Shown: piece after piece, positions 1 through 64,000 of the stretch
How positions within the stretch are numbered: position 1 is the stretch's first letter
How the letters are laid out: the number at the start of each line of letters is the position of its first letter
Assembly: GCA_038087875.1 (NCBI GenBank)
Contig: CM075988.1
Location: 12,278,001-12,342,000 of the forward strand
From: Malacoraja senta
Taxonomy: Eukaryota
DNA: 64,000 nt
Direction: 5' to 3'
Position numbers and translations under genes: made by a program
The notes under the pieces: model-generated
Told to the model about the DNA's origin: nothing
The model's database searches: none
Seen by the model: only the letters and a program-made list of their open reading frames with translations

Positions 1-507
1 GGAGAAAAGGAATAGGTGACGTTTTGACCCGAAACATCCCTATTCCTTTTCTCCAAAGATACTGTCTGAACTGCTGAGTTACTCCAGCATTTTGCGTCTA
101 TTCTCATGGATATATCTGCAATTAGGATTGATGAGTTGCAGGCTATGGTAATGCAATGTAATAATCCTTGCAAATAATTTTGAACTTTTGCACACATAAT
201 CTACAATTTTGAGATATTATTGCTTTTTTGTCCATTGGATGATAAATAATTGGTGTCTTGAGGTACAGACTTTGTAGAACTTTTTAATACCTAACTCCAG
301 TTTCAGAAGGCCTGAAGGCAATGTTTAGCTGGAAGCTATCTAAATATTGGAATGTTCTACATGCTGTTGAAAGGAGAATAGCTTTGTATTTTCAGCACAT
401 TGGTCTGAAGATCAAATGTTGATTCCTCTTGACAAATCAGCTGCAATGCATAATTTGACAGCTACCATAGGATGAAAAATAAGCAACACCACATGCCATA
501 TGGGTTG

Positions 508-652
508 TCTAAGAAGGAGCTGTAGATGTTGGTTTAAACCGAAGATAGACACAAAAAGCTGGAGTAACTCAGCGGGACAGGCAGCATCTCTGGAGAGAAG
601 GAATCTGAAGAAGGGTCTCGACATGAAATGTCACCCATTCCTTCTCTCCAGA
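508..652. mobile_element. Penelope-derived partial palindrome
   Basis: Left arm followed by CTGAAGAAGGGTCTCGACATGAAATGTCACCCATTCC. A similar centre occurs at 1-105. Confidence 0.75.
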
Positions 653-993
653 ATTCCTCCAGATTTTTGTGTCTATGCCATATGGATTGTTTCTCTTCCC
701 ACCCAACACTTATTTCACAGACAATATGTATAGAATATACACTATTCAGAACAATTTACATGCCAGTGTGTGATTTTTATTTCATGATCCTAATTGGTTC
801 TCACAGTTCACAAGCAAGTCATGTATCATCCAAATTAATATTTTCATTCCACCAAACATAATGATGCTTTGGAGCATTTCAGAATTTTATTTAACAGGTC
901 AGTTTTCTTTGCGTCAAAATAATGCAAGGCAATGAGTTATTTGCAGATCAAAACTATTGCTCATAAAAGCTAACAGCACTAACATTAAGGTCT

Positions 994-4446: not shown

Positions 4447-6087
4447 GAATAGAATAGAATAGACTACGTTTATTGTCATTGCACAATACTGTGCAACGAA
4501 ATTCCATTGCATCTCCTCCGGTTAAAAAATACAAACACGACAACCATTGACACATATGTACACTTATTAGTAAAAATAATAAATAAGTATTTAAAAATAA
4601 TTTTAAAAGAATGTTGCATTTCTTGGAATTACATTTTGCTTCCCCAGAGTTCTCTGTTGGAATTAAGTTATTTTATCGCACATGGGTAGAAACTATTTTA
4701 ATCGCCTCCCAGAGGGTAGCAGAGTGAAAAGGTGGTTGGCAGGGTGGGATGTGTCCTGCTTGATGTTTATGGCCCAGCGCAAGCATCGGGCCCTATATAT
4801 ATCATCCAAGGAGGGCAGTTGAGCGTTTGTGATGCTCTGTGCAGTTTTTATAACTCTCTGCAGCGCCCTCCTCTCAGCCACAGTGCAGCTAGCAAACCAC
4901 ACCAGGATGCCATAGGAGAGGATACTTTCCACGGTGCATCGGTAGAAGGACAGCAGCAGCGGCTGTGAGACGTTTGCTCTCCGCAGAGACCTCAGGAAAT
5001 ACAGCCGCTGCTGTGACTTCTTCACGAGAGTGACGGTGTTCATTTGCCATTTGAGGTCCTGGGAGATGTTTATTCCCAGGAATTTAAAGCCAGTGACTCT
5101 CTCCACCATGTCTCCTTTGATGTATAGAGGAGCAGGTTCCTCTCTCCTCTTCCTCCTGAAGTCAACGACCAGTTCTTTTGTCTTTGATGGGTTGAGTACC
5201 AGGTTGTTTTTGGTACACCAGACAGTCAGTTTTTGGACTTCATCTCTGTAGGCAGACTCGTCATTGTTGTTTATCAGTCCCACCACAGTCGTGTCGTCCG
5301 CAAACTTGATGATCCTGTTTGTACTGTGTGTTGGTGTGCAGTCATAAGTGTATATTGTATACAAGATGGGACTCAGCACACAACCTTGTGGCGCTCCTGT
5401 GCTGAGCGTCAGGACTGGGGAGTAATTGGACCCCATCCTGACAGTCCGTGGGCGATCTGTTAAGAAGTCCTTAATCCATCTGCATGTGTTTGCATTAACA
5501 CCCAGATCAGACAGTTTGTCCACCATTCTGCTGGGGATGATGGTATTAAATGCAGAACTAAAGTCTACAAATAACATCCTCACATATGAGCCAGGGCGCT
5601 CCAGATGTGTCAGTGCGGAATGTAGAGCTATGTTGATGGCATCTTCCGTTGACCTATTTGCTCTATATGCAAACTGATGCTGATCCAGGGTGGATGGGAG
5701 TGAGGACTTAATGTGGACCAGGACCAGCCGTTCAAAACACTTCATCACAGTTGAAGTGAGAGCAACAGGTCTGTAGTCATTCAGGCAGGTAATGGATGTT
5801 TTTTTGGGTACAGGCACGATAGTAGCAGTCTTGAAGCATTTAGGAACAGTGCACGTTGACAGAGAGAGGTTAAAGATGTCGCTAAGAACCTCCGCTAACT
5901 GGTCTGCACAGTCCCGCAATACTCTCCCTGGGATGCCATCTGGGCCAGCAGCCTTCCTGGGGTTGACCCTGCGGAGTGCTCTTCTGACATCCTCCGTACT
6001 CACAGTGAGTGCCAGGTCATCAGTGCTGGGTGCGGCTGCAGGTGCAGGCTCCGCCTCATTCAGCTCAAAATGGGCGAAAAACGACAA
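4447..6087 (-). mobile_element. Young 5'-truncated Rex1/Babar-type LINE with an uninterrupted RT-domain ORF
   Basis: ORF 4693-6087 (464 aa) contains [39 protein letters not shown] and KFADD. (TTCTA)n-type tail at about 4447-4463. The C-terminus is frameshifted/deleted before the NSFYP motif. Confidence 0.9.
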
Positions 6088-6589
6088 ACATCAAACCCTG
6101 GATGAATGAAGACAATGAAATTCTCTGGATCAAACTTTCCACATTGCTTCAGCAGAGTGAGATGGTCTGTGGCATGAGTGGGCTGTGAGATCCATCCAGA
6201 GGCTTGTGCTTATTATTTCCCATTCTGAACAGATTCTGAGACAGCTTAGTGAAGCATGTGGAGAAACAAAAGGCTCACATTGTTAGACAAGGGCCATGGC
6301 AACGTTGCTTACAGTCAAATGAAAAAAAGCGTGATTGATTTTTATAGCATCGAGCCTTGATTAATCTATCATGTTTCGTGGATTTCGAGTGGATGACATT
6401 GGGTTTCACATTATTTTGGAGTTGTCATGGTTGACTCTTCCATGAAGCTTTCATCATTACTGCCTTTTTATTGCTGCACTGCAGATTAAACGGCCTCTGT
6501 TGCTTGGCCGTTGCCTGCCTTTTCAATGTTTTTTACATCTCCAATACCTTCAGTTCTTTTCTGCTTATTTTTGGTCCTGATGCTGGAGG

Positions 6590-9184: not shown

Positions 9185-9558
9185 TATAATAATAATAATA
9201 ATAATGGATGGGATTTATATAGCGCCTTTCTAATACTCAAGGCGCTTTACATCGCATTATTCATTTACTCCTCAGTCACACTCGGTGGTGGTAAGCTACT
9301 TCTGTAGCCACAGCTGCCCTGGGGCAGACTGACCGAAGCGTGGCTGCTAATTTGCGCCTACGGCCCCTCCGTCCACCACCAATCACTCACACACATTCAC
9401 ACACATTCACACACATTCACACACATTCACACGCAGGCAAAGGTGGGTGAAGTGTCTTGCCCAAGGACACAACGACAGTATGCACTCCAAGCGGGATTCG
9501 AACCGGCTACCTTCCGGTTGCCAGCCGAACACTTAGCCCATTGCGCCATCTGTCGTCC
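9185..9558 (-). mobile_element. tRNA-derived CORE-type SINE with an L2-type tail, inserted into an HE1 SINE
   Basis: Minus strand: A box TGGCGCAATGG, B box GGTTCGAATCC, CORE-like GTGTCCTTGGGCAAGACACTT, (GTGAATGTGT)n, tail TGTAAAGCGCCTTGAG...GCGCTATATAAAT and (TTA)n. Confidence 0.85.
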
Positions 9559-11811: not shown

Positions 11812-12330
11812 GCATAGGAAGGAACTGCAGATGTTGGTTTATGCCAAAGATAGACACAAGATGCTGGAGTAACGCAGTGGGTCAGGGAGCATCTCTGACG
11901 TTTTGGGTCGAGAACCTTCTTCAGACTGAGAGTCGGGGGGGGGGGGGGGAAGGAAACTAGAGGCATGAAAAGTTCAGCACAAATTAGAACTGCCACTAAT
12001 GACCAAGGGAAGATGGAGCTCACAATGGCCCATTGTTGGTTGTGGAGGAGGTGTTAACAAAGGGATATATGGATGTGAACAGTGGAACTGGCAGGATGAC
12101 TTGAGTGGCGGAGGGGCGGAGATAGAGGGATATAAGGTTTACTTGAAATTAGAGAAATCAATACTCAAGCAACTAAACTGCCCAAGCAAAATATAAGGTG
12201 CTGTTCCTCCATTTTGCATGTGGCCTCCCCCTGACAATGGAGGAAGCCCAGGACCAAAAGTATGGGAATGGGAAGAAGAGTTGAAATGTTTGACATCCAG
12301 ATGACATAGGCCAAGGCAGACTGAGCATAG
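11812..12330 (-). mobile_element. Penelope-like retroelement 3' end
   Basis: Frameshifted VLGFLHCQ..KMEEQHLIFCLGSL..SIDFSNFK followed by the same terminal repeat as 31565-32085. Confidence 0.75.
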
Positions 12331-15079: not shown

Positions 15080-16240
15080 AAGTCAAGTCAAGTCAAGTCA
15101 CTTTTATTTCTATAGCACATTTAAAAAACAACTCTCGTTGACCAAAGTGCTTTACATTGGTGGAGGTACTAACGTTATACAACAGTGGTTCATAGATTAA
15201 GTACATACATAAATACATATGTATATAGCCCTCCCTCAGAGGACGTCAAGAAAGGCTTGAGAGTAAAGATGAGTTTTAAGTCTCGACTTAAAAGAGTCGA
15301 TGGAGGGGGCAGTTCTGATGGGAAGAGGGATGCTGTTCCACAGTCTAGGAGCTGCAACCGCAAAGGCACGGTCGCCCCTGAGCTTATGCATAGACCGTGG
15401 GATGTTCAGTAACCCCAAGTCGGCCGATCTGAGGGACATGGAGGTGGTTTGGTGGGTAAGCAGACTTTTGATGTAGGTGGGGGCAAGCCCGTTTGGGGGT
15501 TTATAAACAAAAAGAAGGACCTTGAAATGTATTCTGAAACCACACAGGGAGCCAGTGGAGAGAGGCCAGAATCGGAGTGATGTGGTCCCTCTTTCGGGTG
15601 CCCGTCAGGAGTCTCGCTACGGCGTTTTGGACCAGTTGCAGGCAGGACAGGGAAGATTGGCTGATGCCAGTGTAAAGGGAGTTGCAGTAATCGAGGCGGG
15701 AGGAGATAAATGTGTGGATGATCTTTTTTGAGGTCGTCAAACTGGAGGAATTGTTTTATTTTAGCTATCGTCCGAAGCTGGAAGAAGCTAGCTTTTACCA
15801 CGGCATTGACTTGTTTGTCAAATTTCAGTGCTGAGTCAAATATCATGCCAAGGTTTTTGACGTGAGGTTTGAGTAGTGGGGTAAGGCTTCCAAGGCTGCC
15901 TGCTATCATTTTGATTGAGTCCGAGGGGCCGAGAAGGATGACCTCAGACTTATTCTCATTTAGTTGGAGGAAGTTCTGGGCCATCCAACACTTTATATCC
16001 TCGAGGCAGTGGATAAGGTTAAGTAGATTTGATCGGTTGTTGGGCTTCAGGGGGAGATAGAGTTGTGTATCATCTGCATAGCAATGGAAGGAAATGCCAT
16101 GCCTTTGAATGACTTGGCCTAAGGGGAGCATATACAGGGAGAAGAGAATGGGGCCACGGATGGAACCTAATGGAACCCCACAGCTAGCTGGGGAGGAGAA
16201 AGAGTTCCTATGTTAGTAGAGAAACTCCTACCTTTTAGCT
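15080..16240 (-). mobile_element. L2-clade LINE, 5'-truncated (copy A)
   Basis: FHCYADDTQLY, NFLQLNENKSE, SRLDYCNSL, HITPILASLHWLP and GDRAFAVAAPRLWNS; (CTTGA)n tail; frameshifted. Confidence 0.92.
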
Positions 16241-17269: not shown

Positions 17270-19190
17270 TTACTCTCCCCCTCCCCACCATGGACTCCAT
17301 CTACACCTCATCATTGCCTGTGGCAGATTGTGTTTTCTCAGCTACCGCAGAAAGTACATCCTCTGTTGGGCCTTTCTGATGGTGACTGCCCATTTAAGGT
17401 CCCTGGAGATGATGGTTCCAAGGAACTTAAATGACTCCACAGATGTGATTCTGGTGTTGTTGATGGTGAGTGGGAGGAGGGGAGGAGGAGCTCTCCTAAA
17501 GTCTACAATCAATTCCACCATCTTAAGAGCATTGAGCTCCAGGTTGTTGCGATGGCACCAGGGCGCCAGCTGTGTCACTTCCTGTCTGCAGGCAGATTCC
17601 TCCCCATCCTGGATCAGTCCATTCTGGGTTATGTCATCCGCAAACTTGAGAAGCTTGACAGAGGAGTCTGTGGAGGTGCAGTCGTTGGTGTAGAGAGAGT
17701 AAAGGAGAGGGGAGAGTACGCAGCCTTGTTGTGCTCCTATGCTGAGGGTCAGCGGGTCCGAGATGTGCTTTTCCAGCCTCACATGCTGCCTCCTGTCTGT
17801 CTGGAAGTTGGTGATCCACTGACGGAGAGGTTCAGGCACAGTCAACTGGGAGAGTTTGCAGTGTAGTAGCTCTGGCACAATGGTGTTGAATGTAGAGCTA
17901 AAATCCATGAACAAAATCCTTGCATAGGTCCCCTGGCGGTCTAGGTGCCGGAGGATGACGTGCAGGCCTAGGTTGACTGCTTCATCCACTGATCTATTGG
18001 CCCAGTGTGCAAACTGCAGGGGGTCCAGCACATGTCTTTTAAGGGTCATCATGATTACAGAGGTCAATGCGACAGGCCTGTAGTCATTAAGACCAGTAAT
18101 CCCTGGAAACAGGAACAATAGTGGAGACTTTGAAACAGGCAGGGACAGTGCAAGTTTGCAGGGACTGGTTGAAAATGTCTGTGTGGACTGGTGCCAGTTG
18201 TTCGGCACAGAGCTTGAGGGTAGAGGGGGAAACATTGTCCAGTCCTGGAGATCGGTGTGAAGTGGTGATTGGGGAAGAGTCGGTGGGGAAGGGTCCAGTC
18301 TTTGCAGATTGGAGTCAGGCTGTGAGTAGATGTAAAATGGTGATAGGGGAAGAGTGGGCGGGGGCGAAGGGGTACCAGGATTATGTTTCTGCCCATTGAA
18401 CCTGGAGTAGAACTCGTTCAGGTTATTGGTCAGCTGACGATTGTCCAAAGTGCGGGGGGTTTTCCTCTTGTAGCTGGTGATTTCTTGAAAATCTTGCTCC
18501 TCAACTTCTCAGAGTACCTTTCCTTGGCAGCTCTGATTCCTCTTCTCAGCTTGTACTTGGCCTGTCTGTGGAGGTCTTCATTTCCGCTCCTGTAGGCCTC
18601 ATCTTTAGACTGGCGGAACTGTCTGAGTTCTGCTGTAAACCAGGGCTTGTCAATGTTAAACCTGATCCGGGTCCTAGTGGGAATGCAACAGTCCTCACAA
18701 AAGCTGATATATGATGTCACAGTGTCTGTATATTCATCGAGGCTTGTGGTTGCTTCCTTGAGCACATTCCAATCAGTGCACTCAAAACAGGACTGTAGGT
18801 TTTCAATGTCTTCGCTTGTCCACTTTTTCATTGTTCTGACCACAGGCTTAGCAGATTTTAGTTTCTGCCTGAAGGTCAGAATAAGGTGAACTAAACAATG
18901 ATCAGAGAGTGCCAGAGCGCACGGGGAACAGAGCGATATGCGTTCTTGATTGTTGTATAACAATGATCGAGTGTTCTCTCCCCTCTAGTGGGGCAGCACA
19001 TGATGTCTGTATTTTGGAAGCTCTCGGCTGAGGTTAGCCTTGTTAAAATCCCCCAGAACAATGACCATGGAGTCCGTGAAGTCACTCTCTACTCTTATTA
19101 CCTGGTCAGCGAGTTGCGTTTGCACCTCACGTACGCAGACTGGTGGGGGGGGGGGGGGGGGGGGATGTAAACTCCAGCGAGAATAAAAGA
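17270..19190 (-). mobile_element. Degraded Rex1/Babar LINE with APE-endonuclease end and RT
   Basis: [65 protein letters not shown] and KFADD across several frameshifted ORFs (17342-18448, 18430-18963, 18891-19085). Confidence 0.88.
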
Positions 19191-20109: not shown

Positions 20110-20500
20110 CATCCATCGCTGGTAACTTCCAATCCAATGGTATGAACATTGAATTCAACAAGTTTAGGGAACAATTTCCGCCCCACTTTTTTTCCCCCTC
20201 TCTTTTCATTCCCCCTCTCTTCATTGTAACCCAACCTCCCCTTTTCCCATCACCTTTTCCCATCACCTTTTCCCATCCCCTTTCCCCCATCCCCTTTCCC
20301 CCATCCCCTTTACCCCATCCACCCCCCAGACCCTCCCCCCTCCCCCCGGTCCCCATTCCCCCTTCCACTTTCTCCTTCTCCTTTCCCCACCCTTCCCCTT
20401 GACCCTGACTGAAAATAGGTCCCGAAAGCAAAAATCACCAATCTATGTCTTCCAGATATGCTGCCTGACCCTCTTGAGTTACTCCAGCACTTTCTGTTTT
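20110..20500 (+). mobile_element. Penelope-like 3' fragment with an expanded pyrimidine tract
   Basis: QSNGMNIEFNKFR, a C/T-rich tract, then a degenerate terminal repeat (ATGCTGCCTGACC..GAGTTACTCCAGCA). Confidence 0.65.
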
Positions 20501-25239: not shown

Positions 25240-25453
25240 TGTAGGAAGGAACTGCATATTCTGGTTTCCACCAAAGATGGACACGAAAAGTTGGAGTAAC
25301 TCAGCAGGGCAGGCAGCATCTCTGGAGAGAAGGAATGGGTGACGTATCGGGTCGACTCTGAAGAAGGGTCTCGACCCGAAACATTGCCCATCCCTTCTTT
25401 CCAGAGATGCCGCCTGTCCCGCTGAGTTACTCCAGCATTTTGTGTCCATCTTC
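25240..25453. mobile_element. Penelope-derived fold-back palindrome
   Basis: Left arm GTAGGAAGGAACTGC...GAATGGGTGACG and right arm CTGAAGAAGGGTCTCGACCCGAAAC...GTGTCCATCTTC are reverse complements. Confidence 0.85.
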
Positions 25454-28710: not shown

Positions 28711-30299
28711 CAGTGGCTTGCAAAAGTATTCATACCCCTTGAACTTTTCCACATTTTGTCACGTTACAACCACAAACGTAAATGTATTTTATTGGGATTT
28801 TATGTAATAGACCAACACAAAGTGGTGCATAATTGTGAAGTGGAAGGAAAATGCTACACGGTTTTCAAATTGTTTTACAAATAAAAAACTGAAAAGTGTC
28901 GCGTGCAAAAGTATTCAGCCCCCTTTACTCTGATACCCCTAAATAAAATCCAGTGCAACCAATTGCCTTCAGAAGTCACCTAATTAGTAAATAGAGTCCA
29001 CTTGTGTGTAATCTAATCTCAGTATAAATACAGCTGTTCTGTGAAGGCCTCAGAGGTTTGTTAGAGAACATTAGTGAACAAACAGCATCATGAAGCCCAA
29101 GGAACACACCAGACAGGAGAAGTTTAAAGCAGGGTTAGGTTATAAAAAAATATCCCAAGCTTTGAACATCTCACGGAGCACTGTTCAATCCATCATCTGA
29201 AAATGGAAAGAGTATGGCACAACTGCAAACCTACCAAGACATGGCTGTCCACCTAAACTGACAGGCCGGGCAAGGAGAGCATTGATCAGAGAAGCAGCCA
29301 AGGTAACTCTGGAGGAGCTGCAGAGATCCACAGCTCAGGTGGGAGAATCTGTCACAGGACAAATATTAGTCGTGCACTCCACAAATCGGGCCTTTATGGA
29401 AGAGTGGCAAGAAGAAAGCCATTGTTGAAAAAAAGCCATAAGAAGTCCCGTTTGCAGTATGCCACAAGCCATGTGGGGGACACAGCAAACATGTGGAGGA
29501 AGGTGCTCTGGTCAGATGAGACCAAAATTGACGTTTTTGGCCTAAATGCAAAACGCTATGTGTGGTGGAAACCTAACACTGCACATCACCTTGAACACAC
29601 CATCCCCACTGTGAAACATGGTGGTGGCAGCATCCTGCTGTGGGGATGCTTTTCTTTAGCAGGGACAGGGAAGCTGGTCAGTGTTGATGGGAAGATGGAT
29701 GGAGCCAAATACAGGGCAATCTTGGAAGAAAACCTGTTAGAGTCTGCAAAAGACTTGAGACTGGGGCGGAGGTTCACCTTCCAGCAGGACAACGACCCTA
29801 AACATACAGCCAGAGCTACAATGGAATGGTTTAGATCAAAGCATATTCATGTGTTAGAATGGCCCAGTCAAAGACCAGACCTAAATCCAATTGAGAATCT
29901 CTGGCAAGACTTGAAAATTGCTGTTCACAGACGCTCTCCATCCAATCTGACTGAGCTTGAGCTATTTTGCAAAGACGAATGGGCAAAAATGTCAGTCTCT
30001 AGATGTGCAAAGCTGGTAGAGACATACCCCAAAAGACTTGCAGCTGTAATTGCAGCGAAAGGGGGTTCTACAAAGTATAGACTCAGGGGGGCTGAATACT
30101 TTTGCACGCGACACTTTTCAGTTTTTTATTTGTAAAAACATTTGAAAACCATGTATCATTTTCCTTCCACTTCACAATTATGCACCACTTTGTGTTGGTC
30201 TATCACATAAAATCCCAATAAAATACATTTACGTTTGTGGTTGTAACATGACAAAATGTGGAAAAGTTCAAGGGGTATGAAAACTTTTACATGCAACTT
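28711..30299 (+). mobile_element. Full-length Tc1/mariner DNA transposon, Passport-like IR/DR type, defective
   Basis: TA at 28709-28710, then CAGTGGCTTGCAAAAGTATTCATACCCC. About 210-bp inverted repeats (28711-28923 and about 30086-30299) with an inner direct repeat GCAAAAGTATTCAGCCCC. A transposase lies between them. Confidence 0.93.
29090..30081 (+). pseudogene. Tc1 DD34E transposase pseudogene
   Basis: ATG at 29090 (MKPKEHTRQ...GLGYKKISQALNISRSTVQSII), in-frame TGA at 29198-29200 and small deletions in the N-terminal half. The catalytic part is open: WSDETK...QQDNDPKH...PDLNPIENLW, with 34 residues between the second D and the E. The expected stop after GGSTKY reads AGA. Confidence 0.92.
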
Positions 30300-30452: not shown

Positions 30453-31245
30453 TCTATATAATTAAAAGTCTCATCCTGACCACTTCCTGTTTGCACTGCA
30501 TATTGATTTTAGAAAAAAAAACGCTACCGCTTACGGCTGTGATTTTTGGCCATCTTACTCAGTCCCCCTCTGTTGCGCACGACAAGAGGATTTTTCCCTT
30601 CGATGAAAAATAAAAGAGTTATTAATGTTTAAAAAATGTTGAGATTATCTCTCCTGTCATGACTGCCATGAAGGCCACGCCCCTTCTGGTGGGTGGGGGG
30701 AGGGACTATAAAACCCAGAAGAGTGGGTGTGGCTCTGTCTCTGCAAGATCGGGGAGGGAGAGGTCACCTTGGTGGCATTGCACCCTGTTTGAAATGGTAG
30801 GAAACTGCTTTTGAATTTGCTGTCCTTGCACCCTGCTTGAAATGGTATGAAACTGCTTTTGAATTTGGTGGCCTTGCACCCTGCTTGAAATGGTATGATA
30901 CTACTTTTGAATTTGGAGGCCTTGCACCCTGCTTGAAATGGTAGGAAACTGCATTTGAAGTTTGTGGCCTTGCTCCCTGCTTGAAATGGGAGGAAACTGC
31001 ATTTGAATTTGGTGGCCTTGCACCCTGCTTGAAATGGTAGGAAACATCATTTGAATCTGGTGGCCTGCACTCTGCTTGAAATGGAATTTCAAGGAATAGT
31101 CGTGAGTCAACTGCCTGGCCACCAGCCGTGAGTGAGTGAGCTGCCAGCACACCAGGCTTGAGTGACTGAGCTGCCAGCCCAAGAATCCATTCAGCCCACA
31201 ATGTCCATACTAGCCTTTTGGAAACCAGTCCCTTCGGCCTGTGTA
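30453..31245 (+). mobile_element. Putative Helitron 5' portion with an internal minisatellite
   Basis: A|TCTATATAATTAAAAGTC start inside a (TA)n tract, typical of Helitron 5' ends. No 3' CTAG end found before the (CA)n tract. Confidence 0.55.
30775..31085. repeat. 48-bp minisatellite, about 6.5 units
   Basis: Unit approximately GAATTTGGTGGCCTTGCACCCTGCTTGAAATGGTAGGAAACTGCWTTT; shows up as a 16-aa periodicity in the minus-strand ORF. Confidence 0.9.
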
Positions 31246-31545: not shown

Positions 31546-31564
31546 AGCGATACAGGTGTCTGTG

Positions 31565-32085
31565 TGTGTAGGAAGGAACTGCAGATGCTGGTTTATACCG
31601 AAGATAGACATAAAATGCTGGAGTAACTCAGCGGGACAGGCAACATCTCTGGTTCGAAGGAATGGGTGGAGTTTCGGGTCTGGACCCTTCTTCAGACTGA
31701 GAGTCAGGGGAGAGGGAGACACAGAGATATGGAAGGATAAGGTGTGAAAGCGAGACATCAAAGGGGACGAGGCTCACATAAAAAATGTTGAATAGATAAT
31801 TGTTAGCTAGGGATGGTGACAACAAAGCATACAAAGATAAAAATTAATCAGGAGTTCAGTCAGACTCGTCGGCGATTTAGAATGGGGGAGGGATAGAGAG
31901 AGGGAAAGTAAGGGTAACTTGAAGTTAGAGAAGTCAATATTCATACTGCTAGGTAAGCTGCCCAAGCAAAATATAAGGTGTCGTTCCTCCAATTTGCGCT
32001 GGGCCTCACTCTGACAGTAGAGGAGGTCCAGGACTGAAAGTTCAGTATGGAAAGGAAGGGGAAGTTAAAGTGTTGTGCAAACTGG
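31565..32085 (-). mobile_element. Penelope-like retroelement 3' end: GIY-YIG C-terminus plus terminal repeat with a hammerhead-like core
   Basis: Minus strand reads VLDLLYCQSEAQRKLEERHLIFCLGSLPSSMNIDFSNFK, then CTGAAGAAGGGTCCAGACCCGAAAC (about 31695-31671), ending GCAGTTCCTTCCTACAC. Confidence 0.8.
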
Positions 32086-34039
32086 GTACACGCACAAAAT
32101 GCTAGAGTAACTCAGAGGTTCAGGCAGCGTCTGTCTCCAGTTCCTTCCTACACTATTCATCACCTTTGATCTGTCTAGGAATAGCAGTACCACTATATCT
32201 AGTATTTTGAGAACAATAGGACAGTAACTCTCCAGACCACATTTCAGTGCACTTCCTCTTTCGAGGAAAATAAAGAGAATGAGTGGAACACACTCAGAAA
32301 GTAGGAAATGGCAAATAGAAAGTAGTCCAGTGGGGGCATTGAGGCTTTAATTTCCATTGTGATAAATGCTACCATTTATGAACATTAAAGCATCTGAGGC
32401 TATTGAAAATGTGAAGCCTTTGTCACTTAGAGTAGTTGAAGAGGAAGTTTGTACAATATTAAGGTGATTACATTCAGTGAAAGTATTCAGCATTAACCTG
32501 AGGGTGGCAAACATTCATCCAAGGCTTAGTTTGACTTATCCCATGTGAACACTAGGACTCTTGCTCAGCGTGGTTTAGAATGATAAACACGGGGCAGGTT
32601 TATGGCATTAAACAGCTCGATACTATTGATGTAAATCTGTCAAATAGGTCTATATAATTGACTGATGCAAAATGCTTTTTTCACCAAGTTAGACCCTAAA
32701 AGGTTCATTAAATGCCCACTGACCAATAGTGAAATGGGTAGTTATCTATTGAACTTAGGAGCTAAGCTGGGATTTGTATATTTTTAAAGCACTCACATTT
32801 TCTTAAAATTTGCGTAAAAATAATGGTTTATAAATACACAGCGATTCTCGATTTCCCAACAAGCCATGTTTTATCAGATAGATCTATCTATTAGATAGAT
32901 ATATTCTTGATTAGTACAGGTGCAGGAGAATGGGGTTGAGAGGGAAAGTTAGATCAGACATTATTGAATGGTGGAGTAGACTTGATGGGCCGAATGGCCT
33001 AATTCTGCTCCTATCACTTATGAACTTATGTTTTTGGAAATGATATGAACAATAGAAACAGACCAGGATAAATCAAAATGTTATCATCTCAAACAAAAAA
33101 TGGAGTTCTGTTGTTTGTGGAGTTAGTCCAAGATTCAGAAAAAGGTCTGCAATCACCAGATTTCACAATGAAATGATACCACAGCTCCTATTACAATAAA
33201 ATAGTAAAATACAGAGGAGGATTGGTTGGTGATAACTAGGAGGAGGTTCACAGCCATACAGCACAGAAACGGGCCCCTTGTCCCAACTTGCCCACCATGC
33301 ATGTTGCATCCGAGTCCCTTTTCCCTAGTGTAGGAAGGAACCGAAGATAAACACTAAAAGCTGGAGTAACTCAGCGGGAGATGCTGTCTGACCTGTTGAG
33401 TTTCTCCAGCTGTTTGTGTCTATCCCTTTTCTCCTTGTTTAGCCCATATCCCTTTACACCTTTGCTATCTATGTACCAGTCCAAGTGTCTTTTAAATGCT
33501 GTAATAGTATCTGCCTCAACTACTTCCTAAGGCAGCTCATTCCATATATCCATCACCTCTGTGGGAAAAAGTTACCAAGTTCCTACCAAACGTTATCCCT
33601 CTCTCCTTAAACCTAAGTCTTCTGCTTTTGATTCCTGTATCCTGGGCAAAAGACTGTGCAATCTCAATATCTATGCCCCTCATAATTTTATACACTTTGC
33701 TCATGATGGTTTGCTACTCTATGGAGTCCACAGTCGATGTTGAATGCATCAAAGGTTACTACCTCCTGGGTACGCACCACTGAGTTACTCCCCTCAGGAT
33801 CCTTTGTCCTGCTGGAGGGGACAAGATGAATCCCGATGCTGTGATGAAGGAGTATCACAAGTTGGGCTGAAGGGCCTGTTTCCTTGCTATATGACTATGG
33901 CTAATATAGTATAGTCTGGACAGTATGTCTCTGACTGTGTTGGGTTGATGCTTGGCCAATCTGTGCAAATGTCCTTTCAATTTATAAACCAGTCTTCAGA
34001 TGCTTGGCAAGAGGTTTTTGCACGATAGGCTAAGTTGTG

Positions 34040-34767: not shown

Positions 34768-35969
34768 AACATATTGACCGTCTCCGGTATGGGGTTGGTA
34801 TTGATGGCACTGCCCTGAGCTGGTTCATCTCCTACCTCAAAGGTAGGAGTTTCTCGACTAACATAGGCAACTCTTTCTCCTCCCCAGCTAATCTCTGCTG
34901 TGGGGTTCCACAAGGTTCCATCCTTGGCCCATTCTCTTCTCCCTGTATATGCTCCCCTTAGGCTAAGTCATTGAAAGGCACGGCATTTCCTTCCATTGCT
35001 ACGCAGACGATACACAACTCTATCTCCCCCTGAAGCCCAAAAACCAATCAAATCTGTTTAACCTTACCCACTGCCTCGAGGATATAAAGTGTTGGATGGC
35101 CCAGAACTTCCTCCAACTAAACGAGAGTAAGTCTGAGGTCATCCTTCTCGGCCCCTCGAACTCAATCAAAATGATAGCTGGAAGCCTTACCCCACTACTC
35201 AAACCTCAAGTCAAAAATCTTGGCATGATATTTGACTCAGCACTGAAATTTGACAAACAAGTCAATGCCGTGGTAAAAGCTAGCTTCTTTCAGCTTCGGA
35301 CGATAGCTAAAATAAAACAATTCCTCCAGTTTGATGACCTCGAAAAGATCATCCACACATTCATCTCCTCCCGCCTAGATTACTGCAACTCCCTTTACAC
35401 TGGCATCAGCCAATCTTCCCTGTCCCGCCTGCAACTGGTCCAAAACGCCGCAGCGAGACTCCTGACGGGCACCCGAAAAAGGGACCACATCACCCCGATC
35501 CTGGCCTCTCTCCACTGGCTCCCTGTGCGGTTCCGTATAAACTTCAAGATCCTCCTCCATGTCTACAAAGCCCTCAATGGGCTTGCCCCCACCTACATAA
35601 AAAGTCTTCTCACCCACCACTCCACCTCCAGGCCCCTCAGATCGGCCGACTTGGGGTTGCTGAATCTCCCACGGTCTAGGCATAAGCTCAGGGGCGACCG
35701 CGCCTTTGCGGTTGCAGCCCCTAGACTGTGGAACAGCATCCCCGTTCCCATCAGAACTGCCCCCTCCATCGACTCTTTTAAATCAAGACTAAAGACTTAT
35801 CTATACTCCCAAGCCTTTCCTGACGTCCTCTGAGTGAGGGCTACATGTATATATGTATGTAGTTTGTTTTGTTTGTGCTATTCTTATAACAAATGTAAAG
35901 CAATTTGGCCAATGAGAGTTGTTTTTTAAATGTGCTATATAAATAAATGTGACTTGACTTGACTTGACT
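34768..35969 (+). mobile_element. L2-clade LINE, 5'-truncated (copy B, same subfamily as copy A)
   Basis: GVPQGSILGP and YADD motifs; open 245-aa C-terminal ORF 35096-35833; AATAAA then GACTTGACTTGACTTGACT tail. Confidence 0.92.
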
Positions 35970-45292: not shown

Positions 45293-47049
45293 GCCTCTTT
45301 GGCAGACACATAGAATAGAACTTCAAATGACCTGGTACAAATCTTTTCCTGTGTGCAGATAGCCCTCTGGGACAAACGGGGAAATGAAAGTCTGACACGG
45401 GTGTAATATTGGACATCAGCCCCGATAAGAATTATAGAATGTGACCATCTCTGTACATGATGATGTTGTAAATGGTTCGGTGCAGAACTGATCAGAACTG
45501 ATCTGTGCAAATGACTGTTAGGCAATTGTCCTTCACTGAACTTTGCAACCCTTAGTGGTGCACCTTTCCTCTTAATCATAATCACTATTTACCTGTATCT
45601 TAGAGAGGCTGGTTAAGACAGAAAAGAACAGATAATGTCCCAGTCGATGATTCACTGTAAATTATACTGTTGTATCATCTGTTGTCCAATGCTACAATAG
45701 CTTCATCTATGAGGTACTGATAACACAATAACATTGTTTTGTGATTGAAAGATGCTATGACAGATGCCTGACAACATTGTTATGGAAGTTGTATTTTGAA
45801 TAATCTGTCAGAAAATTATTCTTTATCACTGAAAACATCACTTGTATTGTGATGCAGGTTTAATATTCTATTATTCATAACTACCATTTTTCATTTACGT
45901 TTTATTTTCTCTTTGCTGCGTGTTGCCTTATTTTCTTTCTTCCAGGAAGCAATGTTAGGTGAGATAAGTGGTTCCCATGAAAATCCTTTCTCCCTCATTA
46001 TATCTGCTTCGTGACAATTGAGAATGCCATCCAAGGGATGACTTTACTCAGGCACTGCTGCGGCAACATTTGGAAATAAGTCTTCATAGGAAACATAAAC
46101 CATGTGGAATTTATTTTGAAAAAAAGTCAGTGCTGGAGGAACCCCACAAGTCAGGCATCATTTGTGGAGGTAACTGGACAGACAACATTTCGGGTCAGGA
46201 TTAGTCTGAATATGGATCCCATGCTGAAACAGTGTCAGTCTATTGCCCTCACAGGTGCTGTCTGAGCCACTGAATTCCTCCAGCAGTTTGCTGTTCACAC
46301 AAGCTTCTAGCATCTGCAGTTTCTTATGTCTCCATGGTAACAACATAAGTTTAATAAGTGAGCTCACAATATATAACATAATATATTTTGTTGTAAAAGA
46401 GTAATATTTAGTCTAAATTAACTTATCTCTGGTTAACAAACCATGATGGATCTTTCTCTCGACTGCAAACATAGTTTGAAGTACATCATTTAATTGCTTC
46501 GAACTGTTATGGAATAGCAGTATTATCTTCAAAGGTTGAAAGGGTTTATTGATAATAAATTAATCCTTGGACCATTTGCAACATATTTAAAGAGTGAGGT
46601 GAGATTATTTGTTGGATGAGGAGATCAGCTGAATAAATATTATTAAATGTCTTTCAGTTAAGCGCATTTTAGGTTGAGGGTGTGAGTCTTGGGAAGAAAT
46701 CACATTGCATTGTAATATGTCATGCAGCCACTTATATATAAAAAAATAAAACTGCAGCCTCTGAGACCTTTCCAGCGATGTGAAAAATGTCATAATACTT
46801 CTTGCCAAAGAATACAAAGTTCTATTAAAAAAATGTTCTTGCTAACTGCATTAATAGAACATCTACCAAAGGTCAATGGAAGTATTGCTGTGTTGGACAC
46901 ACAGCAAAGTCCCAGGAAGTTGACAAAGGGTTTTGAAGAAAAATTGCGGTAATATGCTTTAATTTGTAAACAAGCATGGAATTGGATTCACTGGTCATGG
47001 AACAGGTGTTGTACAATGTATCATGAGATGAACAAGGATTGGTTGAAAA

Positions 47050-47186
47050 TATGACAGAAAGTGCTGGAGTAACTCTGCAAGGCAGGCAACATCTCTGAAG
47101 AACATCGATAGGTGATGTTTCTGGTCGGGACCCAAAACCTCTGAAGAAGGGTCCTGACCTGAAACGTCACCTCTCCATGTTCTCCT
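47050..47186. mobile_element. Penelope-derived palindrome split by an HE1 SINE (resumes at about 47479-47560)
   Basis: CTGAAGAAGGGTCCTGACCTGAAACGTCACC at 47141; the arm continues GAGATGCTGCTTGACC after the SINE. Confidence 0.7.
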
Positions 47187-47189
47187 CGG

Positions 47190-47478
47190 GGCGGCACAGT
47201 GGGGCAATGGTGCAGCGGTAGAGTTGCTGCGTACAGTGCCAGAGACCAGGGTTCAATCCCAACTACGGGTGCTGTCTGTATGGAGTTTGTACATTGTACA
47301 ACTCCGGGTACTCCAGTTTCCCCCACATCCCAAAGATGTGCAGGTTTGTAGGTTAATTAGCTTCTGTGAAAATTGTCCCTCATGTGCAGGATAGTGCTAG
47401 TGTTCTGAGTGATTGTGGACTGGTGTGGACTCGGTGGGCCAAAGGGCCTGTTTCTGTGCTGTATCTCGAAACTAAACT
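47190..47478 (+). mobile_element. HE1-type SINE
   Basis: GGTGCAGCGGTAGAGTTGCTG head and AAACTAAACT tail. Confidence 0.8.
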
Positions 47479-49514
47479 GAGATGCTGCTTGACCTGCTGG
47501 ATTACTCCAGCACGTTGTGTCTTTTTTTGTAAACCAGCATCTGCAGTTCCATGTTCTACATTTTGGTTGAAAAGATCCCGCTTTTGTTCTTCAACAGGGT
47601 GAAGTGTTCATGAGAGGTTTGGAGCTAAACAAAGGTTGAGACCAGTAACACACTGTGACTGGGTAATGTTTTCTTTTTGTGGGATCTACTGACTGGTGCG
47701 CATGCTTCTAATAAATCTGACTAGTCTGCCAACTGCTCAGTATTACTCCAGCATCATATTAAGAATGGGAGGGGAATCCTCTTGGAGAAAGCCTTTGGTC
47801 ATACTTAGAAAAACCTTAGTTCCCAAAAACCTGGCACACAGCATTAAACCGACTAATGAGATTTTTTTCCCCTTGAAAAAGCTTAAAATATTACAATTCA
47901 TATCGCGTTTCTGCAGCCTAACAGCTTTGAGTGTCCAGCTAATGTGATCAGTAAATCTAATTTTTGAACATTAAAAATGTGCGCTGAAATATAACTCATG
48001 GAATATCAATGTAATTTTGAACAAGTTAACAGAATCCATTTTGATGCCAAAGGAAAATCAACCAGAAATTAAGGAGACAAACTATATAGATGGAAATTAG
48101 ATTTTAAACTACTGTCACATATCATTCAACATGTTTTGGATACCTGGAGCCTGTCATTCTAGCAGCAATATCTTGATAATGGGAATATTTAATCACAAAA
48201 CTAATGGAGCAAGACAGATTGTCCAACAACTTGCAACATAAAGTTTAGAGCTTGCTCTAAATGAATTGGAGGATATTCTCTTCAACTTTATTCAGCACAA
48301 ATGATATTCTGTTTCTACCACTGCATTTGAGAACTGGTTGGGAAAAATAGGGTAAAGTGGTGCTTTGATATCATTGAAAAGATCTTTGACGAGTCAGAGC
48401 AGCTCTCAGTAAAATAAGAACTATGATTTGAAAGGTAGGACTGTTTCACTTCTCATCAGACTAATACACCAGAGTAATCATTACTTCCAAGGAGCCGTAC
48501 TACAGAGACTACAAGTTGCTGATATCAATTACTATTTAAAATGTTTACAGGATGTATATTCACTCTTTGGTGAAATGTTGGGAAACAGAGAAAAATGGTC
48601 AAAAGTGAAGAAGATGCATCGAAGTGAAGAGATTTGCAAAGAAATGCTGGAAAAATCTGGGACTAATTAGATAGCTCATTCGAAGCACTGCTACCACCAC
48701 AGATGTCTGTGGAGCTGTCTTCTCAATTGTGTGCTTTTTTTTGTGAGCATTTTCTAAATCATGAACGAAGATGAATTGTTTCAATAAGCTCTGAGGACAA
48801 AGTAATTTCTAGACGTCCAGCATGTTAAGGTGGGAATCTCATCGTGACGAATGTTTTCAGCGAGAAGCAGACACAGTTAAAGCTGCTTTAACATGTGGAT
48901 AGCACTGCGGTAATGTCTGAGAGTTTAAAAGATAGACCTGCAAGTAGAATTATGTCTGTGGATGGCTGGCTTAGGAAAATGAATTCCTCAGTCGAGAATT
49001 GAGTCAGATGTTTACTCAGTAAAAGCTGTACTGACTGAAATTGTGAATTTGTTTAGTGGGTATGGACTTAACAGAAGAATAGGAGATTAAATTAGTTGCA
49101 GTTTTATTGAGCTGCATGTTGGTTATTGTGAGCGACACATAGGTAGAAAAATTGAATTACGTGGGGAGCTCTGCATTGTGGACATCACTTTAGATCTGCT
49201 TTTATCCTATTACGTGATTTATCAGAGTGCAGCTGCAGACAGCAAGAATGAGAGGCAAATGCTGCAAACTATCTGATGGCATGAGGGCATGCTGTGGGTA
49301 AAATGAATCCAGGAGAACTGACATAGAGTGAAGTGCTGAATTGATTGCACTCACTGATTTTGCTGATGTTCCGATAGCCAAGTGACAAAAGTGCTGCAGT
49401 TGCATCTGCTTCAGCCACATCTTATCTTGCATCCAACAAAAACACATGTTTATAAACCAAGCTTGAGGTGTCAAGCCTCTTGTGTGGCCTTTTTTATAGG
49501 GGGGATTTCTCTCT

Positions 49515-56170: not shown

Positions 56171-56854
56171 AGGGCCTGTCCCACTTGCGTGTCCTTGGCA
56201 CGCAAATTACGCGACCTCGTGGTCGCGTTGAGCCGCGACGGTCCTGTGCGATTTCATGCATACACACAGCCGTCTGGAGCGTGTGACGTCATTTGAAGAT
56301 GGAAACAAAGCTGGAGTAACTCAGCGGGACCGGCAGCATCTCTGGAGAGAAGGAATGGGTGACGTTTCGTGTTGAGACTCTTCTACAGTCTGAAAAGAAG
56401 GGTCTTGACCCGAAACGTCACACATTCCTTCTCGCCAGAGATGCTGCCGGTCCCACTGAGTTAATCCTGTATTTTGTGTCCATCTTCAATTTTCTTGGCC
56501 CCGCTCTGGGAGTAGAAATGGGGGCAGATACGGACCGCAACGGCCGTGAGCCCCAGGCCGAGTTCGGCGATCGTTTGCCTGCTTCTGCTGCTGTTGGAGG
56601 TGAGACGTTGCGTCGTGCCAGTGTCTTGGGCCTGACCCACTTTGGCCATCAGTTACGCGACAGGCCATTGGCGCGCAAAGATTTTGTTCGCTACAAATAT
56701 TTCGGACCCCTGCGCGATGTCGCGCACAACTACATACCCATCCGCGCTTCTAAGTGGGACCGGCCCCGCGCGGCCATACGATGCCCATGCGCCTCAACGC
56801 GACCACGAGGTCGCGTAATTTGCGTGCCAAGGACACGTAAGTGGGACAGGCCCT
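56171..56854. mobile_element. MITE, family 2 (about 60-bp near-perfect TIRs) containing a Penelope-derived palindrome
   Basis: AGGGCCTGTCCCACTTGCGTGTCCTTGGCACGCAAATTACGCGACCTCGTGGTCGCGTTGAG is mirrored at the right end; TAA/TTA flanks; CpG-rich. Confidence 0.88.
56293..56489. mobile_element. Penelope-derived fold-back palindrome inside the MITE
   Basis: TTGAAGATGGAAACAAA...GGGTGACGTTTCG / CCCGAAACGTCAC...GTGTCCATCTTCAA. Confidence 0.85.
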
Positions 56855-57152: not shown

Positions 57153-57385
57153 GTGTCTAATTGACAGTGGTGTGACACGTGTGGCGTGGCTGAACCGCTC
57201 CAGCATACTCTACGCAGGGAAGGATAAATGGTCACTGGACCCTCGAGTGATTATCGTGACAAACAGCAAAACAGAATACAGCATTCAGATCATGTCCGTG
57301 GATGTGTACGATGAAGGCCCTTACACTTGCTCAGTCCAAACTCTCAACCATCCCAGGACAACCCGGGTGCACATAATTGTACAAG
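57153..57385 (+). CDS. NTM/OPCML: Internal coding exon (233 bp) of an IgLON cell-adhesion gene, NTM/OPCML clade; first Ig (V-type) domain
   Basis: Polypyrimidine tract and AG at 57151-57152; GT donor at 57386. Reading from 57154 gives [77 protein letters not shown]. This matches the [31 protein letters not shown] signature of neurotrimin and OPCML rather than NEGR1, LSAMP or IgLON5. Phases are 2 (start) and 1 (end). The paralog cannot be resolved from this exon alone. Confidence 0.93.
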
Positions 57386-58682: not shown

Positions 58683-59300
58683 TGAAATATAAAAACAGGT
58701 GTCAGCCATCCAGTTCCTTGCATTTGCAGCATATTTGATGCATACTGTGTTGTAATTCTTCAATTTATTTCTGGACTGCTATCAAGCCTATTGATGTAGT
58801 TTCCCAATCAATCACAGCCAACTCATGTCTCATGCCTTTATTTAGATTTGAACCCTAGTTTTTGATTGAACTGCATCATATTCAGTCTTAACATAAAATT
58901 CCATGGTATTCTATGACCACTTTTCCTTCCAGGTCCTCAACTATATTATTAATGAAGGGGTAGGACACTCACAGTGAATGGTAGGGCTCTAGGGAGTTTT
59001 GCATAATAGAGAGACCTACCAATACAAGCACATAATTCCCTGAAAGTGGCATAACGGACAAACACAGCCGAAAATCTCCCAGCTTTCTTTCCCGTACAAG
59101 TATGGTCCTGATCTGTAAAATTGCCAATTCATGGCCACCAGAGATGCTACCTGACATTTAAGTTACTTAGCACTTTGTGTCTTTTTTTGCAACCCAGCAT
59201 CTGCAGTCCCTTGTGTTGCACTGGGTACCCGGTTGGAATTATGTAAGTATCTGTAAGATTGGGGTGAAGGAATGCTTGGGTGGGTAGGCACTAAGTGCAG

Positions 59301-59433
59301 GAAGGAACTGCAGATGCTGGTTTACACCGAAGATAGACACAAACTGCTGAAGTTACTCAGCGGGACAGGCAGCATCTCTGGAGAGAATGAATGGGTGACG
59401 TTTCGGGTTGAGACCCTTCTTCAGATTGAGCAG
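59301..59433 (-). mobile_element. Penelope-derived mini-copy with TSD and an intact hammerhead-like core
   Basis: TAAGTGCAG at 59292-59300 and 59434-59442; core CTGAAGAAGGGTCTCAACCCGAAACGTC on the minus strand (59424-59397). Confidence 0.8.
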
Positions 59434-60769
59434 TAAGTGCAGTTGTGAATGAGGGTAGGCTCAGGTGGAACAGGTTTAGTCAGTTGTTTCTCAGAGGTCA
59501 CAGGCACCGCCAAAAAAAGTTTCAGTCCGTTTGTTTGAGCAGCTGTTTTTGGAGGCATGTGTGAGTAAAAACAATGTGAAATCTTTGAGTTCTCTGCATC
59601 CTACCACCCTGTTTGCCCTGGGAAAATAGTAGTGCATCATTGCAGCATCAATAGCTTCAGCCCAGTTTGGGACATCCGTCTCCCTCTGGATACACACGTA
59701 ACAATTAAATGAAACAAATTCCAAGAAAATTTAAAAAAAACGAATAATAAATCTTGCGATAAAATTACAATGATAACATAGCAGTTATCAATTGCCCTTT
59801 AGGAATATCTCCGTTTTAGAATGTGGGGAAGGTTGACTGTCAATACGTGAAATACAGGCTACTGATGATAGACAAGATGAAAACAAGGCTGACAGCACTG
59901 CTGTTTATGAATAAAAGCTTGTTGTCATGAAACCATGTCCCAAGTGGTCAATGGTCATATATGGCTTTGCACTTTTGTGATGGCATTATTTGAATTTTGC
60001 AAATAAATGTAGTGGTGAACTTTTGAAAGTCCTTTCTCATTTCAAAAGTCTCCTGGATTTGTTTGTGAAGATTTAGAGGAATCTAATTTATCAAACAATC
60101 CAACTGAAATTGTTTTTCTGATATAGGCAGGTACATTTAAATTTATTTACCTTGGGGGGAGGGGGGGGGGGGGGACAGATCACTGTTAGCCCGAGGTTTG
60201 AAGAGGATAATAAAATAAACATAATCTTCTCCGACATATCCCATATCAATTTCAGAAGAGCTCAGGACATGACCTCGAGTGTTATGTAAATATTAAAAAT
60301 TGTTAAAAAGAATACTATCTAATGAGAGTTTCATTTCAAACTGCTGATGGCTATTGATTTTGTGGGAATAAAAAAATGAAACATCTGTAACTTTACATAT
60401 TGGGCCATTCGCTACTAATTGGGTGATAATTCTTCAGTCCAACTTTGCACATTGATGGGTAAAGTTCTCCGGAAGATTATTCCAGTTTTTGAAAAATTGT
60501 CTCCACCTTATGTTGTAATGCTGGTGATTGAGGAAGCAAAGAATTTGATGGTGTCGCTCACATACTAACAGATATACAGTAAAGGCTTAATTAAAGTACA
60601 TAGAACATTGACGAGTACAACACAGAATAGGCCCTTCAGCTCACACTGTCCATGCCGAACATGATGCCATGTTAAACTAATCTCCTTTGCCTGCACGTGA
60701 TCCATATCCGTCCTTTCCCTGCATAGCAGAAACTGTTCTTGCAGCAAACATATAGAATAAGTTCATAGC

Positions 60770-63050: not shown

Positions 63051-64000
63051 AGAAAGCTTTTGCAATATCAGTCCTGCCGATACAGTATGTGGAACCAGAC
63101 TGAGGAATCTAAACTGAGGTGATGTAGAACATAGACAATAGAAAGGTACAGCACAGGACCAGGGCCTTTGGCCCACAGTTAGCCTTTGGTGACATGGATG
63201 TAAAATTAGAATTGAGAGACTTTAGCAGGAAGGCAAGATATTTTTTTTATGTAGAGGCTACTGAGTGTTTATTAGAGTGTCTACTAAAGATGGCCAGGCA
63301 AAGGGAAGCTGCTATCTTTAGTGAAGTAGGGGATTGGGGGTCCTGGAATCCTAGAATGGAGACAGCAGGGAACAGCAGGTATGTGGATTTGTAGTAGAGA
63401 TCGAGTGTGTTGGGTAGTTTTTCAGTGTAATATCGTAGCAGGGACAATGTGGGTTTGGTGACTGATTTTTTTTTTTGTGAAAACTGCTGATGTGGGTGAT
63501 TTGAAATAAAAAGAGAAAATTCTGGGAGCACTAATACTGGACCTTATTGTAACAATACTGCAGCTCATAGACCAATGGGTTAGAGTGGGAGTGGGTCAGA
63601 GAATTAAAGTCAAAGACAATGGGAAGCTCAAGGTGACACCCATGGATTGACTATGTATTCGACCAAGCAATCAGCCACTCTGTGTTTGTTTTTTTCAATG
63701 CAGAAAAGGTTGTGAGAGCAAAAACAAATGCAATGCCATCATTGTTCGAGTTATGTGGAAATAATGTGATATAATCCAGTACAAAAAGGGCCCAACTATA
63801 CTGTATTCTGAAGTGGACTTTACTGCCCACAGTCATAACCAGGGTGTCCAATTTCTTCTGAAATTGCTTCTTCTAGATTAGGACTGCATACAATGTCTCT
63901 CTCAAAGGGCATATTACCCCTTCCAAAATTAAATTAGCTCTGCTCGTTTTAACATAGTAATGTTTTAATATCTTCCAGTGTGTGTGTTTTGTTATATTTT

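Follow-up and report, generated by a model that had tools for sequence, protein, structure and literature searches.

A minimal hammerhead motif with a short helix I in the terminal repeat of a high-copy Penelope-like element, likely inert at its copies in introns of an IgLON-like gene

Introduction

Hammerhead motifs in the terminal repeats of Penelope-like elements (PLEs) were described in 2014, with thousands of motifs per genome (PMC4209133). The minimal form defined there comprises a CUGANGA box, one extra nucleotide, a G10.1-C11.1 pair, a GAAA box, a palindrome, an NUH triplet and a helix I of 3-7 bp, and the accompanying descriptor allows a helix II of 3-7 bp with a loop of 3-10 nt. The alignment of 56 motifs in that paper is without cartilaginous fish. 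In a 64,000-nt stretch of the Malacoraja senta genome (hereafter the window), a first-pass annotation made from the letters alone had recognised a similar core in an abundant repeat, on both strands of introns of a neural gene, and had named the copy at 59424-59397(-) first among the clearest. The question raised by this locus is whether the core is a true PLE hammerhead motif, and whether the copies scattered in the introns could be active.

Results

The repeat family in the window

The named copy, 59424-59397(-), reads CTGAAGAAGGGTCTCAACCCGAAACGTC and has one mismatch from the consensus given by the first-pass annotation. With at most three mismatches this pattern matched the window nine times, against no match in 100 shuffles, and an edit-tolerant scan gave 14 matches at up to six edits; the claim of more than a dozen copies thus holds only loosely. 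An nhmmer profile, built from four copies, returned 41 rows at E<=1 (34 with E<1e-5), compared with two rows (E 0.34 and 0.71) in the reversed window. The strong hits represent 34 fragments of a repeat unit of about 135 nt and occupy 3,120 bases, or 4.9% of the window (Table 1).

The repeat shows the signatures of a PLE, namely an optional 35-nt tail, head-to-head inversions and target duplications. Duplications of 9-16 bp were found at 7 of 27 loci, the 13-bp duplication of the named copy included, where the 3' end of the insertion overlaps the duplication. Four further candidates, a low-complexity 11-mer and three 7-mers, were discounted as attributable to chance. The long copy has a pyrimidine-rich UTR of about 220 nt, and its core, at 31695-31668, has a mutated triplet. 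The insertion that splits one arm of the 47045-47553 pair (47186-47478, +) is GC-rich and SINE-like, and the interrupted arm continues in register from about 47479. Another head-to-head pair, older and diverged, lies at 46129-46325; its bases after the triplet are unlike those of the main family and may record an earlier helix I.

Table 1. Coordinates of the features in the window.
Feature	Position	Strand	Description
Minimal hammerhead core	59397..59424	-	CUGAAGA, extra A, helix II of 4 bp with tetraloop, GAAA, ACGU palindrome, GUC; helix I 1 bp
Named insertion, a solo short PLE repeat unit with tail	59301..59429	-	Begins 5 nt upstream of C3
Target-site duplication, 13 bp, one mismatch	59288-59300 and 59430-59442		Flanks the named insertion
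Long copy	31565..32154	-	Inverted tail end, partial repeat, endonuclease C-terminus (5'-truncated), UTR, core, tail
Optional PLE tail, 35 nt	31565..31600	-	Between the two common 3' ends
GIY-YIG endonuclease C-terminal remnant (P0001), 50 residues	31915..32064	-	Identified by homologues
Second long copy with endonuclease remnant	11815..12330	-	9-bp target duplication; 17-nt deletion right after GUC
Head-to-head inverted pair	507..676		16-bp target duplication; one arm tailed; + arm starts 1 nt before CUGA
Head-to-head inverted pair with the 25358 core	25240..25453		Profile matches
Head-to-head inverted pair with the 47141 core	47045..47553		+ arm split by ~290-bp insertion, 47186-47478
Head-to-head inverted pair	56295..56487		Junction inside CAG-T-CTG near-palindrome at core start
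Host-gene exon, first Ig domain of IgLON	57153..57385	+	Neurotrimin E 1e-37, OPCML E 1e-36

Core structure and helix I

Among the six copies singled out as clearest, both boxes and helix II are intact only in those at 25358, 47141 and 59424. The copy at 31695 has no cleavage triplet, that at 605 has helix II and the palindrome broken, and that at 56390 carries a 2-nt insertion within the CUGANGA box. Furthermore, 25358 is without the ACGU palindrome and helix II of 47141 is closed by a G-U pair. The palindrome and GAAANNUH are intact at 59424 and 47141, and in the family majority too.

Helix II had been drawn as five base pairs (GGGTC/GACCC) around a 2-nt loop, which is not foldable, and the PMC4209133 descriptor requires a loop of at least 3 nt; in the copies it consists of 4 bp with a 4-nt loop. 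Across 14 aligned copies 85.5% of helix II cells are paired, with 10.1-11.1 being G-C in eight and G-U in four. The covariation that the annotation had proposed to look for was not found, with no compensatory change in the 14 aligned copies of the window, a small and mostly decayed sample. The extra nucleotide after CUGANGA is an A in 15 of 18 aligned copies. The annotation had cited its tolerance in the CChMVd viroid hammerhead; that precedent is unneeded, this nucleotide being a hallmark of the PLE minimal hammerheads of PMC4209133. Non-CpG core positions were somewhat more conserved than those downstream (234/256 vs 1595/1903), a difference confounded by alignment-edge bias and subfamily mixing.

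Compared with the >80% consensus of the 56 published PLE hammerheads (PMC4209133), the core fits in all respects but helix I. In the family majority helix I has 2 bp (U-A, G-C) followed by an A-C mismatch, in agreement with the annotated value of about two; in the named copy, where the upstream bases are AAT, it has 1 bp, and the same holds for all three core-intact copies. A second large subfamily in the sequencing reads likewise has ACC after the triplet (loose end at 31652). Our own implementation of the PLE descriptor (PMC4209133) accepted no window copy at a helix I of at least 3 or even at least 2 bp. Variants with a 2-bp helix I have been published for D. virilis, Culex and Oikopleura, and these contain two G-C pairs (PMC4209133), unlike the U-A and G-C pairs seen here. 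A distal extension of helix I was considered and is not favoured, the predicted probability of two closing pairs being <=0.0001.

Where the 31695 copy is mutated, the family majority in reads has the triplet and the loop restored, with G and T at 31670 and 31669; the counts at 31669 are 1,754/1,982 and 2,110/2,370 (among the 40/334 difference rows listed). At positions 17 and 1.1 most copies have CA, about 6 of 25 have TG and none has CG, a pattern suggestive of two master lineages that became fixed from an old CpG.

A positive control in metagenome contigs

Could the likeness to a hammerhead be chance within an ordinary repeat? The absence of covariation within the window would fit this, as would the hammerhead-model search proposed at first pass, in which an Rfam scan of the window gave no hammerhead among 69 matches at E<=10. 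As a control, metagenome contigs in about 12 of 64 parts of the collection were scanned with the core pattern and no requirement on helix I, which gave at least 127 matches in at least 122 loci; viral contigs gave none. Among the matches listed, helix I was at least 3 bp in 100 of the 123 that could be scored; 2000 permutations of the 3' flanks gave 36.2 on average and never more than 53. Since many matches are relatives, distinct contexts were also counted, and among the matches listed 59 of 80 had a helix I of at least 3 bp and 8 of 80 one of 2 bp. A GIY-YIG endonuclease lay upstream on the same strand in 33 of 127 of the matches listed (any hit, 37/127). No chondrichthyan-like relative was present among the metagenome loci listed, where blastn hits were core-length only.

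Because the metagenome matches have a helix I of at least 3 bp beyond the null and an upstream endonuclease, the core is, as judged from sequence, a true PLE hammerhead motif, though the Rfam models miss it. The same core occurs with a covarying helix I and an upstream endonuclease across many unrelated families, and in the window it fits the published consensus of PLE hammerheads (PMC4209133); the control refutes a chance likeness, which we regard as exceedingly improbable. The annotated identity of the motif, a minimal type I hammerhead in the terminal repeat of a high-copy PLE on both strands of neural-gene introns, is accordingly supported.

The active double hammerhead was predicted at -6.1 kcal/mol for the family majority and +0.1 kcal/mol for the named copy, compared with a control median of -12.8 kcal/mol; among the matches listed, the predicted dimer was worse than the majority in 11 of 80 controls and worse than the named copy in 2 of 80.

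The endonuclease link and the PLE clade

The core had been placed just downstream of a GIY-YIG-type C-terminus, and homologues confirmed this position, with C3 of the hammerhead about 220 nt downstream of the endonuclease end in the long copies. A HMMER search of 1.84 billion proteins with the remnant P0001 gave 32 hits, and predicted proteins match the remnant with 55-72% identity over 44-48 aa. The top hit, P0002, was set aside as a repetitive protein, and a word-based protein search found no homologue among 16 candidates. In three of the eight homologues examined (P0004, P0016 and P0030; E 1e-12 to 8e-9 against the window remnant) a GIY-YIG core lies directly upstream of the matching stretch, the Pfam GIY-YIG matches in the homologues having E values of 0.001-0.008, under the curated cut-off.

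In P0016 and P0030 a CX3-4CxxC motif precedes the GIY-YIG core, a region that is absent from the window. In its account of the clades PMC8557442 gives a CX2-5CxxC motif for Neptune and Nematis, and not for Penelope or Poseidon. The element is therefore likely of Neptune/Nematis type rather than Penelope/Poseidon, as inferred from its homologues only. Like the EN+ PLEs of the Neptune/Nematis type in PMC8557442, it shows partial tandems, an inverted 5'-truncated copy and a tail at one end; its homologues P0016 and P0030 have a C-terminal GIY-YIG with the upstream cysteine motif, a linker that Poseidon as described there lacks. As with the PLEs of PMC4209133, the hammerhead lies downstream of a GIY-YIG endonuclease, copies are mostly dispersed and truncated, and pairs occur on opposite strands. 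No RT of this PLE was seen in the window, where every copy is truncated within or after the endonuclease. Older and more diverged PLE endonuclease C-terminal remnants occur at 63477-63650 (-) and 20120-20200 (+).

Abundance, 3' ends and the optional tail

Four sequencing runs were aligned to 31546-32090 at 80% likeness. The sequences placed on the long copy amounted to 199,497 contigs (X1), 182,671 contigs (X4), 4,052 contigs (X15) and 17,563 reads (X21); these are not copy numbers, and they show the great abundance of the family.

Loose ends with unrelated flanks were found in contigs at 31565 and 31600, 35 nt apart. Among the 26 window arms best aligned to the long copy, 3' ends fall at +92 to +99 in 11 and at +127 to +130 in 8, the latter being the reference copy's own end. 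In six of the seven clear head-to-head pairs wholly inside the window, the tail was present (by eye) on one arm only. The 35-nt segment is the optional tail of 30-40 nt described for PLEs in PMC8557442 and PMC11167929.

The host gene and RNA evidence

The neural gene of the first-pass annotation is confirmed, by homology of its Ig-domain exon on the + strand, as a neurotrimin/OPCML-like IgLON. Because that exon lies on the + strand, the named copy is antisense to the host pre-mRNA.

The idea of intronic copies acting on the IgLON pre-mRNA, by cleavage or by regulation of another kind, can point to the repeat making up about 5% of the window and to several cores on the + strand, the sense strand of the host. 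The core-intact sense copies, 25358 and 47141, have a 1-bp helix I, and each belongs to an inverted pair with arm-to-arm complementarity over the GAAA-GUC segment; the antisense orientation of the named copy and the absent covariation also speak against it, and we consider such regulation very unlikely. The suggestion that intronic copies are plausible active ribozymes is not supported: no copy combines an intact core with a helix I of more than 1 bp, covariation is absent and the named copy is antisense to the host gene. The original caveat that a short helix I leaves activity unassured has become the main result.

In the pairs at 507-676, 25240-25453 and 56295-56487 the arms would form long pre-mRNA hairpins, which are possible editing substrates. 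No clear excess of A-to-G over other changes was found in the runs aligned to 31546-32090.

RNA ends did not pile up at the cut site in the 17,563 placed reads of X21, a fragmented polyA RNA-seq run from a related organism and hence a weak test of cleavage. In the same library, of unknown strandedness, the strand ratio is about 1.0 downstream of the cut site but 0.82-0.84 at the site itself and upstream of it, a dip of 10-18%.

Is the master element still active?

Our preferred explanation, in which we have good confidence, is that a very high-copy EN+ PLE, likely of Neptune/Nematis type, carries a minimal hammerhead core with a short helix I in its pLTR, and that the intronic copies are likely inert, since helix I is down to 2 bp in the family and to 1 bp where the core is intact. 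An alternative is that only the scattered copies are dead and that the master hammerhead is still active despite its 2-bp helix I, either as a protein-assisted dimer in a tandem transcript or through splicing at CAG that improves helix I. Consistent with this, the family majority retains every catalytic base and the palindrome, and the hammerhead of PAc (Poseidon, Anolis carolinensis) is reported to cleave only with its protein (PMC11167929), so that folding energies cannot exclude activity in a master element. A role for splicing would be in keeping with the D. virilis intron end that abuts helix I (PMC4209133) and with the finding that in four long copies a pyrimidine tract terminates in CAG 1 nt before C3. 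Position 1.1 is A or G, both of which pair with U2.1 (7 UA and 3 UG of 14), and the X21 strand ratio drops at and upstream of the cut site.

However, A or G at 1.1 accompanies C or T at 17, which equally fits decay of an old CpG, and solo copies retain the AG/CAG that a spliced template would lose. The predicted active dimer is poor, and the X21 signal is weakened by the unknown strandedness and the missing pile-up of RNA ends. An active master is a possibility worth keeping in mind, though an unlikely one. A spliced-template origin of the short copies was itself rejected as unlikely, the short copies keeping AG.

5' ends at the core

Arm 5' ends fall at -6 to +3 relative to C3 in 9 of 35 cases (p=0.003, with the interval chosen post hoc), with two more at -7, and the target duplication of the named copy places its 5' end at -5. 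Contigs have joints at 31697-31700. Six arms also seemed to begin at the cleavage site (p=0.06), but this grouping was discarded, as four of them owe their position to alignment against a reference copy that has a deletion there. Unrelated PLE families (L057, L117, L035 and L037) likewise have inversion junctions or 5' ends positioned within a few nt before CUGA, and clustering of 5' ends at this place may be general among PLEs.

The TCAGT before the core can be read as an initiator-like start, as a splice acceptor after the pyrimidine tract or as half of a near-palindrome. On the first reading, transcripts would start at TCAGT, 3-5 nt upstream of CUGA, short copies would be run-off cDNAs of the RNA 5' end, and the core would be kept as a promoter-proximal or RT-binding element once helix I could be dispensed with. 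The clustered arm starts and the contig joints would agree with such a start site, and Inr-like sequences are known in pLTRs (PMC3846280). Yet subfamily divergence immediately upstream confounds the contig/read signal at 31700, and the TCAG-T-CTGA near-palindrome or microhomology could equally focus the junctions, palindromes at PLE inversion junctions having been described already (PMC3846280); in D. virilis, moreover, transcription is reported to start well upstream of the hammerhead (PMC4209133). We find a start site at TCAGT doubtful. More speculative and improbable still is an extension in which this PLE rose to very high copy number after loss of a workable helix I and with its catalytic core retained, with a transcript from TCAGT and with the copies of about 100 and 135 nt being a strong-stop-like first cDNA, made from two RT starts to the RNA 5' end. 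If true, it would supply a step still missing from the picture of PLE replication and demonstrate that cleavage is dispensable in vivo.

Discussion

The preferred explanation, a PLE hammerhead with a short helix I, connects what is directly established (the core, the endonuclease link, the 35-nt tail, the inversions, the target duplications and the short helix I) through a mechanism modelled on anole PAc (PMC11167929). Reverse transcription would have two internal start sites, located some 95 and 130 nt past C3, and the RT-endonuclease, as for PAc, would nick both target strands. An uncut RNA template would be copied back through the hammerhead, with the cDNA often stopping just upstream of CUGA, and the outcome would be solo units of about 100 or 135 nt. 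Head-to-head pairs would arise when both target strands are primed. With both strands nicked, two internal starts and RNA left uncut, one would thus expect two alternative 3' ends, persistence of the hammerhead and head-to-head pairs. To cleave, hammerheads would have to dimerise through the ACGU palindrome with helix I closing the structure, and in this PLE family such dimers are predicted to form poorly.

The likeness to PAc as described in PMC11167929 includes a hammerhead near the 3' end of genomic copies that is retained uncut, two 3' termini 30-40 nt apart (the tail) and no RNA-seq ends at the cut site. In contrast, the PAc ORF starts at helix II, and there is no ATG at that place here. 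Non-LTR retrozymes (PMC7229834; Li et al., 10.64898/2026.07.22.740005), as characterised in those sources, also consist of short non-coding type I hammerhead units related to pLTRs; unlike them, the present family has a minimal rather than a canonical hammerhead, and its copies are solo or head-to-head with target duplications. A tandem array of the unit with hammerheads, a retrozyme trait, was not present among 51 TRF rows in the window; some contigs elsewhere contain tail-to-start joints with further sequence in between.

We place the family among the known PLE hammerheads, as a member with a short helix I that is likely inert at its intronic sites. We found no published description of this PLE family in cartilaginous fish, although Repbase, Dfam or the supplements of Li et al. 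2026 (one chondrichthyan) may hold it. As a catalogue entry it adds little to the thousands of motifs described in 2014, and its value is modest, given that the role of PLE hammerheads is treated as open in PMC8557442 and PMC11167929. The combination of a near-perfect core, a 2-bp helix I and very many copies offers a natural test of the need for cleavage, and the 5' ends clustered beside the core are an inexpensive starting point for locating the end of PLE cDNA synthesis.

Other elements are present in the window. LINE-type RT remnants, not PLE-type by appearance, occur at 4693-6090 (-), 15236-16212 (-), 17342-18984 (-) and 34967-35833 (+), the first with a 465-aa open frame (RVT_1, E 2e-30). 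A Tc1/mariner-type transposase open frame of 292 aa (HTH_Tnp_Tc3_2 and DDE_3) lies at 29257-30135 (+), and a tandem repeat at 30769-31084 (48 bp x 6.6 copies, 89% matches). ARAGORN called a tRNA-Ala(GGC)-like sequence at 9482-9556 (-), which is probably a SINE head.
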